Position numbers and translations under genes: made by a program. A model generated the notes under the pieces. The model worked only from the letters and a program-made list of their open reading frames with translations. It searched no databases and was not told the DNA's origin. 11,786 nucleotides of DNA. It comes from a virus (lineage: Duplodnaviria; Heunggongvirae; Uroviricota; Caudoviricetes). Of the stretch, positions 9,765-11,298 are shown in pieces. The stretch is from IMG/VR virus record IMGVR_UViG_2698536590_000002; one strand, 5' to 3'. Position 1 is the first letter of the stretch; each line of letters starts with the position of its first letter.

Positions 9765-9905
9765 TCATACTCCTGCTCCTGTCAGGGTTTTGGCGTAATT
9801 CTTCAGTATTCGGTAATCGGTCAAAACAGAACCGGGGAAACGATATAAGCGCAGATGCCCCCAGCGGTGGCGAAGAAGTTCTGCCATATAAAACTCAAAC
9901 ATCAT
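9765..9905 (-). CDS. ylcG: small DLP12 YlcG-like protein (46-47 aa), not in the ORF track
   Basis: Hand translation of the minus strand between rusA and Q gives [46 protein letters not shown] with stop at 9765-9767. The ATG overlaps the rusA stop (ATGATG over TGA at 9902-9904). Matches my recollection of YlcG. Confidence 0.55.
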
Positions 9906-10264
9906 TCATTCCCAATTTCGGTGATGGTCAGTTCCAGCCTCCCACCTTTGGTAACAGGCATCTTCACAACGCGGTAATCAACGACCTGAGCATCATCCAG
10001 CCAGAAACCTGCTTTAGTGAGTGCGTCAAAAGCGGCTTTTTGCAGATTATCCAGGTCACGGCGACGGCGATCCGGCATGTGGCACTCAATGCGGATTTTC
10101 ACAGGCATAGCCAGGCCGATATCCAGCATTGCGTTTTTAATGATTCGGGCGACGTTATCGCGGTATGCCTGCCCCTCTGCGCTGACGTGCGTGCGCCCGC
10201 GATTATGGCGGTAATAGCGATTATTGCTCGGAGGCCAGGGTAATGTGATGCTGTAGGTATTCAC
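9902..10264 (-). CDS. rusA: crossover junction endodeoxyribonuclease RusA (Holliday junction resolvase)
   Basis: 120-aa ORF (GTG start with RBS AAGAGGGGG) reading [119 protein letters not shown], essentially the E. coli RusA sequence as I recall it. Confidence 0.85.
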
Positions 10265-10386
10265 GCCTTAATAACCCCCTCTTTCAGCCAGATAACCTGT
10301 GTTCTCGCCATACCTTCCAGCGCGCATTCTTTTGCATATGCAGCATCGACTTGCTTGGCATGCCCTTTAGGCGCGATCACTTTCGT
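10261..10386 (-). pseudogene. ybcO: 3' remnant of ybcO-like (DUF1364) gene; last ~41 codons only
   Basis: Minus-strand frame ending in TGA overlapping the rusA GTG (GTGA) reads [41 protein letters not shown]; the last ~28 residues match the YbcO C-terminus as I recall it. An in-frame TAG lies at 10387-10389 and no start or matching N-terminal sequence lies upstream. Confidence 0.5.
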
Positions 10387-10494
10387 CTACTCCGTTACAA
10401 AGCGAGGCTGGGTATTTCCCGGCCTTTCCGTTACCCGAAATCCCCTGAAAGCACAGCGGCTGGCTGAGGAGATAAATAATAAACGGGGAGCTGT

Positions 10495-10686
10495 ATGCAC
10501 AAAGCATCTCCTGTTGAGTTAAGAACGAGCATTGAGATGGCACATAGCCTCGCTCAAATTGGAGTCAGGTTTGTGCCAATACCAGTAGAAACAGACGAAG
10601 AATTTCATACGTTAGCCGCATCCCTTTCACAAAAGCTGGAAATGATGGTGGCGAAAGCAGAAGCAGATGAGAGAGACCAGGTATGA
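10495..10686 (+). CDS. 63-aa phage early-region protein of unknown function (possibly lambda orf63-like)
   Basis: ORF MHKASPVELRTSIEMAHSLAQIGVRFVPIPVETDEEFHTLAASLSQKLEMMVAKAEADERDQV with good RBS GGGGAG 4 nt before the ATG; its stop overlaps the next start (ATGA). The lambda orf63 assignment rests on size and position only. Confidence 0.6.
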   Translation: MHKASPVELRTSIEMAHSLAQIGVRFVPIPVETDEEFHTLAASLSQKLEMMVAKAEADERDQV

Positions 10687-10766
10687 CAACCACTGAATGC
10701 ATTTTTCTGGCAGCGGGCTTCATATTCTGTGTGCTTATGCTTGCCGACATGGGACTTGTTCAATGA
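10683..10766 (+). CDS. 27-codon hydrophobic micro-ORF (single predicted transmembrane helix), not in the ORF track
   Basis: ATG at 10683 overlaps the upstream stop (ATGA) and its own TGA overlaps the next ATG (ATGA at 10763-10766). Encodes MTTTECIFLAAGFIFCVLMLADMGLVQ. Supported only by the double translational-coupling geometry and hydrophobicity. Confidence 0.3.
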   Translation: MTTTECIFLAAGFIFCVLMLADMGLVQ

Positions 10767-10978
10767 CACCTCAGCAGGAAAACGCCCTTCGCAGCATTGC
10801 CCGTCAGGCTAATTCTGAAATCAAAAAAGCCAGACAGCAGTTTCCGGATAAAAACGTCGATGACATTTGCCGTAGCGTACTGAAGAAGCACCGCGAAACG
10901 GTAACGCTGATGGGATTCACACCGACTCATTTAAGCCTGGCGATCGGCATGTTAAACGGCGTCTTTAAGGAACGGTGA
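10763..10978 (+). CDS. 71-aa phage early-region protein of unknown function
   Basis: Reading from the ATG at 10763: MTPQQENALRSIARQANSEIKKARQQFPDKNVDDICRSVLKKHRETVTLMGFTPTHLSLAIGMLNGVFKER. The track ORF (from 10697) has a longer N-terminal extension, but 10763 is the coupled start. Confidence 0.55.
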   Translation: MTPQQENALRSIARQANSEIKKARQQFPDKNVDDICRSVLKKHRETVTLMGFTPTHLSLAIGMLNGVFKER

Positions 10979-11000
10979 GCATGAAAAACAAAATCATCAT

Positions 11001-11021
11001 GGAGCTACAGGCTCCTTTTTT
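11001..11021 (+). terminator. weak terminator-like hairpin plus T-tract
   Basis: GGAGC TACAG GCTCC followed by TTTTTTATT. Only a 5-bp stem. It lies inside a possible 29-codon ORF (10981-11070), which I therefore consider less likely to be real. Confidence 0.3.
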
Positions 11022-11076
11022 ATTATTCGCATTCACCCTCAAGCGTATTAACCAACAATTCAGGGATTAATGAAAG

Positions 11077-11298
11077 ATGGCAGACATCATTGATTCAGCA
11101 TCAGAAATTGAAGAATTACAGCGCAACACAGCAATAAAAATGCGCCGCCTGAACCACCAGGCTATATCTGCCACTCATTGTTGTTAGTGTGGCGATCCGA
11201 TAGATGAACGAAGACGCCTGGTCGTTCAGGGTTGTCGGACTTGTGCAAGTTGCCAGGAGGATCTGGAACTTATCAGTAAACAGAGAGGTTCGAAGTGA
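11077..11298 (+). pseudogene. TraR/DksA-family C4 zinc-finger protein gene (lambda Orf73-like) interrupted by an in-frame amber codon
   Basis: Frame reads MADIIDSASEIEELQRNTAIKMRRLNHQAISATHCC then TAG (11185-11187), then CGDPIDERRRLVVQGCRTCASCQEDLELISKQRGSK and stop. Across the TAG this aligns with the TraR motif C-x-x-C-G-N-P-I-P-E-A-R-R...C-x-x-C as I recall it, with the TAG at the second x of the first CxxC. Confidence 0.6.

Follow-up and report, generated by a model that had tools for sequence, protein, structure and literature searches.

A probable 27-codon micro-gene inside the 'orf61' stretch of the lambdoid exo-xis region

Does a 27-codon open reading frame (ORF) that fills the space between two small phage genes encode a protein of its own, or does it only lie in front of the gene that follows? 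The question is raised by a DNA of 11,786 nucleotides (hereafter the window, numbered 5' to 3' from its first letter) from a virus of the Caudoviricetes, IMG/VR record IMGVR_UViG_2698536590_000002. At positions 10,495 to 10,978 a sequence-only reading had described a chain of three small ORFs of 63, 27 and 71 amino acids (aa), and had taken the middle one, termed here the micro-ORF, for an unannotated membrane peptide with a candidate role in host takeover or exclusion. Our analysis assigns this part of the window to the exo-xis region in the PL early operon of a lambdoid prophage. We conclude, with a probability of about 0.72, that 10683-10766 is a real protein-coding micro-gene of this region, working through the coupling mechanism proposed below. 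Most probably it was born recently and is coupled translationally to both of its neighbours, and our best guess is that its product is a membrane peptide whose synthesis also passes ribosomes to orf61. The features concerned are as follows.

10495-10686, plus strand: orf63 (DUF1382), 63 aa, from ATG at 10495 to TGA at 10684-10686; Pfam PF07131 (E=3e-31), 'DUF1382 family protein' in the Prokaryotic Genome Annotation Pipeline (PGAP)
10683-10686, plus strand: first ATGA overlap, in which orf63 stops (TGA) and the micro-ORF starts (ATG)
10683-10766, plus strand: micro-ORF, 27 codons and a stop (TGA 10764-10766), peptide MTTTECIFLAAGFIFCVLMLADMGLVQ; its counterpart in phage lambda (J02459) is complement(30925..31008)
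10697-10762, plus strand: the frame-2 'N-terminal extension' of a 93-aa Orf61, judged not to be conserved coding sequence
10763-10766, plus strand: second ATGA overlap, in which the micro-ORF stops (TGA) and orf61 starts (ATG)
10763-10978, plus strand: orf61 homologue in its 71-aa form, from ATG at 10763 to TGA at 10976-10978; PGAP WP_000188870.1

The chain of 63, 27 and 71 aa is exact to the base in the window sequence, with no intergenic base at either junction of orf63, micro-ORF and orf61. A doubly overlapping ORF arose by chance in ~5% of random-sequence trials in which the 76-nt spacer was fixed, and the chance is ~2%, by our own arithmetic, when the spacer length is free. ORF geometry alone is suggestive, not decisive, and it is because of the comparison with related loci that the micro-ORF is regarded as more than a chance arrangement.

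For this comparison 399 related loci were collected from IMG/VR, GTDB genomes, RefSeq E. coli genomes, phage records and gut metagenomes. Integrity was counted over the 375 loci that have an ungapped copy of the micro-ORF, and mutational events were counted over 231 loci and then over ~390 aligned loci. The ATG and the open frame are present in all 375 ungapped loci, 327 of which encode the identical peptide. In two loci the stop comes one codon early, with loss of the last codon only, and neither a frameshift nor an in-frame indel of the micro-ORF occurs among the 375; indels are confined to two error-ridden assemblies (L004 and L005) and to L325. By tblastn the micro-ORF was located in 175 phage records, in identical form in 138. 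Conservation of the ORF together with both of its overlaps, on which the sequence-only reading had staked its claim, held in homologous phages and prophages.

Mutational events in these loci discriminate between the frames. Over the 231 loci, changes read in the frame of the micro-ORF (frame 0) comprise 13 synonymous and 11 non-synonymous events (P=0.003), or 6:1 when only common variants are considered, and the frame of the long Orf61 (frame 2) shows 2 synonymous and 16 non-synonymous events. Over the ~390 aligned loci the corresponding figures are 14 and 17 in frame 0 (P=0.016) and 7 and 18 in frame 2 (P=0.6), the non-synonymous changes added by the larger set being singletons. For the micro-ORF stretch, the frequency-weighted ratio of non-synonymous to synonymous nucleotide diversity (piN/piS) is 0.045 in frame 0 (piS 0.10 versus piN 0.0045), as against 3.1 in frame 1 and 3.5 in frame 2; the 71-aa orf61 has a ratio of 0.032 and orf63 one of 0.30. 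These patterns indicate that purifying selection acts on the frame of the micro-ORF, as strongly as on orf61, and not on that of the orf61 extension.

Some sequences at the margins of the locus collection had to be dealt with separately. Two candidates of ~51% identity (P0115 and P0121) were considered as diverged homologues and rejected, since their contigs are riddled with frameshifts that point to sequencing or assembly errors, and they were kept out of the statistics. Scans of viral and metagenome contigs for the locus of a 65%-identical homologue (P0124) returned E. coli-type loci only, which were added as population samples. Shewanella, Pseudomonas, Bacillus-type and similar genomes were rejected as hosts, because the 214-base match fits the lambda frameshift allele and several of the contigs are ~48 kb long; the matches in Shewanella, Pseudomonas, Bradyrhizobium and similar assemblies are taken as lambda contamination and not as host range.

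The loci differ in the gene that lies immediately upstream, as listed here.

335 loci: orf63, with the micro-ORF next and an ATGA overlap
41 loci: a phage N6-adenine methyltransferase gene, with homology from the micro-ORF ATG exactly, the ATGA kept and GGGAGG 4 nt upstream
3 loci from gut metagenomes (L394-396): a different gene and no micro-ORF, orf61 having its own GAGG
1 locus (L090, Escherichia sp. E1V33): a DGQHR-domain gene, with a strong Shine-Dalgarno (SD) site and an ATGA overlap on the ATG equivalent to 10697

As a translation initiation signal, the micro-ORF has an ATGA overlap in every context, and SD pairing at its start amounts to -10.3 kcal/mol in the methyltransferase context and -5.6 kcal/mol in the orf63 context of the window. 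Judging from these arrangements, we regard the micro-ORF as a portable unit that travels with orf61.

The gene downstream was found to start at 10763 and not at 10697, a start that would have made the 27-codon frame merely its leader. Distant Orf61 homologues with 29-48% identity were detected in Klebsiella, Vibrio, Yersinia, Enterobacter and Erwinia phages by tblastn and all-against-library HMMER searches. They are 55-73 aa long in five aligned phage loci and mostly 69-75 aa long among library representatives; their alignment with the 71-aa form begins at its residue 1, and the enterobacterial ones open MTPE..ENALR. Translation of orf61 would begin with ATG in 352 loci; 23 Escherichia loci have GTG instead, and this ATG>GTG change is CAA>CAG in the micro-ORF, where it is synonymous and leaves the TGA intact. 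In frame 2, natural alleles replace the Cys and His residues or introduce other changes (G>R, H>Y, C>F, C>Y), the codon before 10697 varies by phage (TGA, GGA or AGA), the ATG at 10667 is ACG in 37 loci, and SD pairing at 10697 is weak (-3.8 kcal/mol). An AlphaFold2 model of the 93-aa form has a predicted local distance difference test (pLDDT) score of 40-52 for residues 1-20 and of 73-91 for the helical core, in line with PMC8614690. Because the distant homologues start there, frame 2 is unconstrained and AlphaFold2 confidence is low, 10763 is the true start of orf61 (71-aa form), and the frame-2 extension is an annotation artefact. A zinc knuckle in the Cys/His-rich extension was considered and rejected, the Pfam match to Viral_DNA_Zn_bi being weak (E=0.008) and the Cys/His positions variable.

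The distant relatives also bear on where the micro-ORF came from. Klebsiella phages have the order methyltransferase-ATGA-orf61-TraR, with no micro-ORF. In these phages the sequence ACGGAGGCNGCATGAC stands in front of orf61; in L090 and in the Escherichia methyltransferase context it stands in front of the micro-ORF. Three unrelated upstream genes, namely the Klebsiella methyltransferases, the Escherichia methyltransferase and the DGQHR gene, end in (T/R)EAA and a stop, encoded by ACGGAGGCNGC-ATGA; at the L235-L237, L112 and L090 junctions these ends are encoded by ACGGAGGCNGCATGA. Because unrelated genes share this end, the last codons of the upstream gene are likely a portable initiation region, and the SD site inside them seems to accompany the downstream gene when mosaic exchange occurs. 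The region drives orf61 in Klebsiella (ATGACGCCA...) and the micro-ORF in Escherichia (ATGACAACC...), where orf61 starts 80 nt further downstream with ATGACACCT. Since the distant phages are without it, the micro-ORF appears to be a young insert of ~80 nt restricted to Escherichia. The simplest reading of its origin would be an insertion of ~80 nt immediately after the ancestral start of orf61; the new ORF would have inherited the initiation region of that gene (the ACGGAGGCNGC-ATGAC motif), and orf61 would have been left dependent on reinitiation. A tblastn search with the peptide gave no match outside the exo-xis locus, and the micro-ORF is an orphan gene.

The peptide is hydrophobic, with a grand average of hydropathy of 1.62 and Kyte-Doolittle means of 1.76-2.44 in all 17-residue windows, and it is equalled in this respect by only 2% of the window's 89 short ORFs. 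An uninterrupted apolar run extends over residues 6-21, and residues 6-26, apolar save Asp22, are long enough to span a bilayer, so that hydropathy bears out the earlier description of a single hydrophobic helix. The alternative that the stretch acts as a structured RNA element or small RNA was rejected, as it folds worse than shuffled sequences (minimum free energy -29.3 kcal/mol versus a shuffle mean of -37.4 kcal/mol, z=+2.2).

We propose the following mechanism. Ribosomes that finish the upstream gene would reinitiate at the ATGA and so begin at 10683; in the methyltransferase context they would start there by way of the strong GGGAGG Shine-Dalgarno site. The 27-residue single-helix product would partition into the inner membrane, and termination at 10764-10766 would set the ribosomes exactly on the start of orf61. 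SD pairing at that start is -3.9 kcal/mol, as against -7.3 kcal/mol for orf63, and because orf61's own SD site is weak and the micro-ORF stop overlaps its start, translation of orf61 is expected to depend on translation of the micro-ORF. Since the residues are conserved, and not the length alone, the peptide is most likely active in its own right early in lytic growth.

It might be asked whether only the act of translation matters. The micro-ORF would then be a relay that just delivers ribosomes to the weak orf61 start, with the peptide a degraded by-product. Overlaps at both ends, the SD value of -3.9 kcal/mol at orf61, a peptide without basic residues or homologues, and an insert that captured orf61's ancestral initiation region would all suit a relay, and an orf61 with its own SD site does manage without the micro-ORF in L394-396, the Klebsiella phages and L090. 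Yet a relay needs just an open frame of the right length, and what is seen is a piN/piS of 0.045 with identity of 327 of 375 peptides at a piS of 0.10, and an invariant length with no in-frame indel in 375 loci; we therefore consider it unlikely that the micro-ORF is a relay and nothing else. It is very improbable that the real gene is a long Orf61, read as 93 aa from 10697 or from the lambda-type start at 10667, with the 27-codon frame open by chance. Such a gene would have to accommodate 7 synonymous and 18 non-synonymous changes and a piN/piS of 3.5 in frame 2, with variable Cys/His residues, a variable codon (TGA/GGA/AGA) upstream of 10697 and loss of the 10667 ATG in 37 loci. The 93-aa form has been adopted by PHROG 303, by the exo-xis literature and in many phage records, frame 2 is uninterrupted, and L090 has its strong SD site and ATGA overlap on the ATG equivalent to 10697; set against these are distant homologues of 55-73 or 69-75 aa that start at the 10763 position, pLDDT values of 40-52 for residues 1-20, SD pairing of only -3.8 kcal/mol at 10697, and the choice of the 71-aa form by PGAP. 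The Cys/Ser-rich character of frame 2 would itself be expected from shifted xTx hydrophobic codons.

We likewise give little credence to a non-functional spacer, that is, 80 nt that are alike through recent shared ancestry and undergo no purposeful translation. The shallow clade with its 92-100% identity, the chance of ~2-5% for the ORF geometry and the absence of the micro-ORF in distant relatives would fit a spacer, but variation is concentrated at frame-0 third positions (piS 0.10 versus piN 0.0045), like that of the adjacent orf61 and opposite to that of the other frames, and the mosaic joint falls exactly at the ATG, with a strong SD site in the second context. A type I toxin-like gene, whose small, hydrophobic, membrane-damaging peptide would be checked by an antisense RNA, is scarcely credible. 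The mRNAs of type I toxins are highly structured, and the mRNA here is less structured than shuffled sequences (z=+2.2). The size and hydrophobicity of the peptide do resemble those of DinQ, ShoB and Ibs peptides, but its gene is welded into a polycistronic chain and does not stand alone, it has no basic residues, and a consensus scan, which could miss one, found no minus-strand promoter-like site near 10683-10766.

A number of observations weigh against the interpretation of 10683-10766 as a real, coupled micro-gene. The carriers are 92-100% identical here, so that the selection signal consists of 31 mutational events in one shallow clade, and the event-count test becomes weaker once metagenome singletons join (P=0.016). 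The micro-ORF is dispensable to orf61, given L394-396, L090 and all distant homologues, which are without an intact copy; in L090 the N-terminus of the micro-ORF is lost and the rest is fused in frame to orf61, and insertion sequence (IS) insertions inside the micro-ORF also count toward dispensability. The peptide has no Lys, Arg or His and hence no positive-inside flank, E5K being a rare variant only. Membrane proteins of stable orientation do not usually lack basic residues altogether. Searches of Pfam, NCBIfam, PHROGs, PADLOC and the PDB gave no match for the peptide; PADLOC, whose profiles are insensitive at 27 aa, had none for the micro-peptide, Orf61 or Orf63. With no match in family, defence or structure libraries, the role in host takeover or exclusion that had been suggested for the peptide stays a conjecture. 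By the account given in PMC8614690, the ribosome-profiling study of lambda added ORFs of 7 and 31 aa here, and not one of 27 aa. In the window itself, a 5'-truncated orf60a, without its first 28 nt, is fused to an inverted DLP12-like block at a rearrangement joint (10367-10369), orf73 (11077-11298) has an in-frame TAG at codon 37 (11185-11187) within its first CxxC, and no plus-strand promoter-like site was found upstream of the exo-xis block in a consensus scan.

The micro-gene reading has consequences for published work on lambda. Laboratory lambda differs from the window by an extra A in the A6 run at 10823-10828 (A7) and by TGA>GGA at 10694. The A7 allele (L003/L113) frameshifts the 71-aa orf61 of lambda to a 29-aa remnant, and the 61-aa 'orf61' of lambda, placed at 30839-31024 in GenBank J02459, is a frame-2 read-through that stops early, a by-product of A6>A7 and TGA>GGA together; lambda Orf61 looks truncated and unfolded (PMC8614690). 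The micro-ORF is overlapped in full by this lambda orf61 (30839-31024), and also by the 93-aa Orf61 of Phi24B, in its first 22 codons. The primer for the 'orf61' frameshift (Bloch et al. 2014, PMC4195576) deletes the C in CTTCATATTCTGTGTG[C]TTATG, which is window position 10734 and lambda position 30957, the first base of micro-ORF codon 18. With this allele the peptide becomes a 42-aa product and the frame-2 product is cut short, and the 29-aa orf61 remnant is left untouched. Deletions of orf61 replace the whole annotated ORF (Dydecka et al. 2018, PMC6213356) and, because the annotated orf61 contains it, should remove the micro-ORF too. Since the mutants hit the micro-gene and the 71-aa gene of lambda is already broken, their phenotypes cannot be assigned with confidence to orf61, and part of the mild pro-lytic 'orf61' phenotypes may belong to the peptide, especially in lambda. 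A fuller proposal, that the peptide is the real effector of part of these phenotypes, acting at the inner membrane in the first lytic minutes as an orphan that arose by the ~80-nt insertion and gates Orf61 translation, is possible but doubtful.

In current annotation, PGAP and RefSeq give orf63 and a 71-aa 'hypothetical protein' (WP_000188870.1) with a 76-nt 'gap' between them, and the micro-ORF is unannotated in RefSeq/PGAP, in lambda J02459, in the CPT lambda imm21 record, and in mEp332, P27 and ev058. The exact peptide is 'hypothetical protein BE964_26140 [Escherichia coli]' in one protein collection, belongs to the UniRef cluster whose representative is A0A0A2SGE8_ECOLX, was gene-called on ~981 contigs, and appears as a hypothetical protein in a small number of E. 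coli records in GenBank. The earlier label 'unannotated' is thus right for reference and RefSeq annotations, and wrong for these few GenBank records and the UniRef cluster. The micro-ORF is not described in the exo-xis papers examined, and the peptide sequence had no match in the literature searched or in the Sakai ribosome-profiling (Ribo-seq) supplements. In many phage records and in exo-xis papers, Orf61 has 93 aa and begins with the ATG that corresponds to 10697. The name 'cell division protein ZapA' that many NCBI records give to the 71-aa protein was rejected, since the Pfam match (E=0.017) scores 15.9 bits against a cut-off of 23.8, and it looks unsupported.

The identity of the surrounding region is clear from its relatives. 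The stretch 10400-11100 has 97-100% identity to thousands of E. coli prophages, and the 701-bp block with the micro-ORF matched more than half of the complete E. coli genomes (3369 of 5426) and ~180 phage records, among them lambda, 434, HK630, 933W, Phi24B and other Shiga toxin (Stx) phages. The gene order of the block is orf60a (DUF1317), orf63 (DUF1382), 'orf61', orf73 (TraR/DksA) and ea22, and the chain of overlaps extends beyond the micro-ORF to orf60a/orf63, orf63-micro-ORF-orf61-orf31 and orf73-ea22. The description of a phage early region was sound, this being the exo-xis block of the PL operon with 97-98% identity to lambda. Further downstream the window contains two more features.

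10975-11070, plus strand: a 31-codon ORF that overlaps the orf61 stop, by GTGA in the window and ATGA in lambda
from 11077, plus strand: a TraR/DksA-type gene (orf73), after a 6-nt gap from the 31-codon ORF and followed by an Ea22-like gene

The 31-codon ORF is weakly constrained (piN/piS 0.22), and three residues set its allele in the window apart from most relatives. This ORF is probably the one of 31 aa that lambda ribosome profiling reported, as cited in PMC8614690, and it contains a terminator-like hairpin (11001-11015) with a T-run, the 't2' of PMC4195576. On the other side of the micro-ORF, orf63 has 19 synonymous and 37 non-synonymous changes and a piN/piS of 0.30, little purifying selection compared with the 0.03-0.05 of its downstream neighbours. 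A solved nuclear magnetic resonance structure and reported phenotypes exist for orf63 despite this weak constraint.

The prophage of the window is damaged around the block. The DLP12-like block lies on the minus strand (9765-10380) and carries ylcG, rusA and a DUF1364 remnant, and in comparison with strain ML35 another 965 bp, comprising NinX, NinE and a methyltransferase remnant, are deleted. With HCC(stop)CGDP in place of the HCCECGDP of its relatives, orf73 is a pseudogene in the window. Because the prophage is decayed and has no promoter-like site upstream, the micro-ORF and the exo-xis block are probably silent here; the term 'early genes' is apt by ancestry, and present expression in this rearranged, decaying prophage is doubtful. 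Just 3' of the rearrangement joint, inside the orf60a remnant, a hairpin GCGAGGCTGGGTATTTCCCGGCCTTTC at 10393-10420 matches the stem-loop of the predicted terminator 't1' (PMC4195576), and the sequence right after it differs, being CGTTACCC in the window and CTGTTATCC in PMC4195576. IS3-family insertions occur inside the micro-ORF of one strain, after the equivalent of 10726, and inside orf61 of another (L111, which is E. coli EC13, and L006); they show the region still decaying in resident prophages.

Few genomes have been annotated as closely as that of lambda, and the exo-xis region attracts study for its influence on the lysis-lysogeny decision and on Shiga-toxin prophage induction. The results imply that the literature coordinates of orf61 are wrong: the conserved protein has 71 aa, the N-terminus of the 93-aa form (Phi24B) is a wrong-frame translation, and the 61-aa lambda form is the product of a laboratory-strain frameshift. 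A second, selected gene would lie inside the 'orf61' stretch, and existing mutants are confounded. The locus would also be a clear case of a gene born recently, through an insertion at the junction of translationally coupled genes. Its value is a concrete re-annotation, not a new mechanism.

Several known systems can be compared with the micro-gene. KdpF, PmrR and YohP are small bacterial membrane proteins with a single helix and at most 30 residues. The micro-peptide is like them in having 27 residues, one hydrophobic helix and no cleavable signal, and its gene likewise lies in an operon with overlapping or adjacent genes, is missed by annotation pipelines and has amino acids conserved within its clade. 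Unlike them, it has no flanking Lys or Arg and a net charge of about -2, is phage-borne and confined to Escherichia lambdoid phages, and is known here from sequence alone, with no known partner. The lambda and Stx-phage 'orf61' (PHROG 303 and PHROG 26061) is encoded by the same DNA in another reading frame and is another product, and the conserved Orf61 is a 71-aa helical domain from 10763, unlike the micro-peptide. With the type I toxins DinQ, ShoB, Ibs and TisB the micro-peptide shares length and hydrophobicity; unlike these toxins, the micro-ORF shows no antisense promoter signal in a consensus scan and has no structured mRNA, stand-alone locus or basic residues. ATGA and TGATG overlaps are hallmarks of translationally coupled gene chains that work by termination-reinitiation. 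The present chain resembles these in its stop/start overlaps at both ends and in the weak SD site of the downstream gene, and differs from them in that the relay element is itself a 27-codon ORF with a peptide under selection. Small hydrophobic proteins and coupled overlaps are both well known, and in kind the micro-gene is ordinary.

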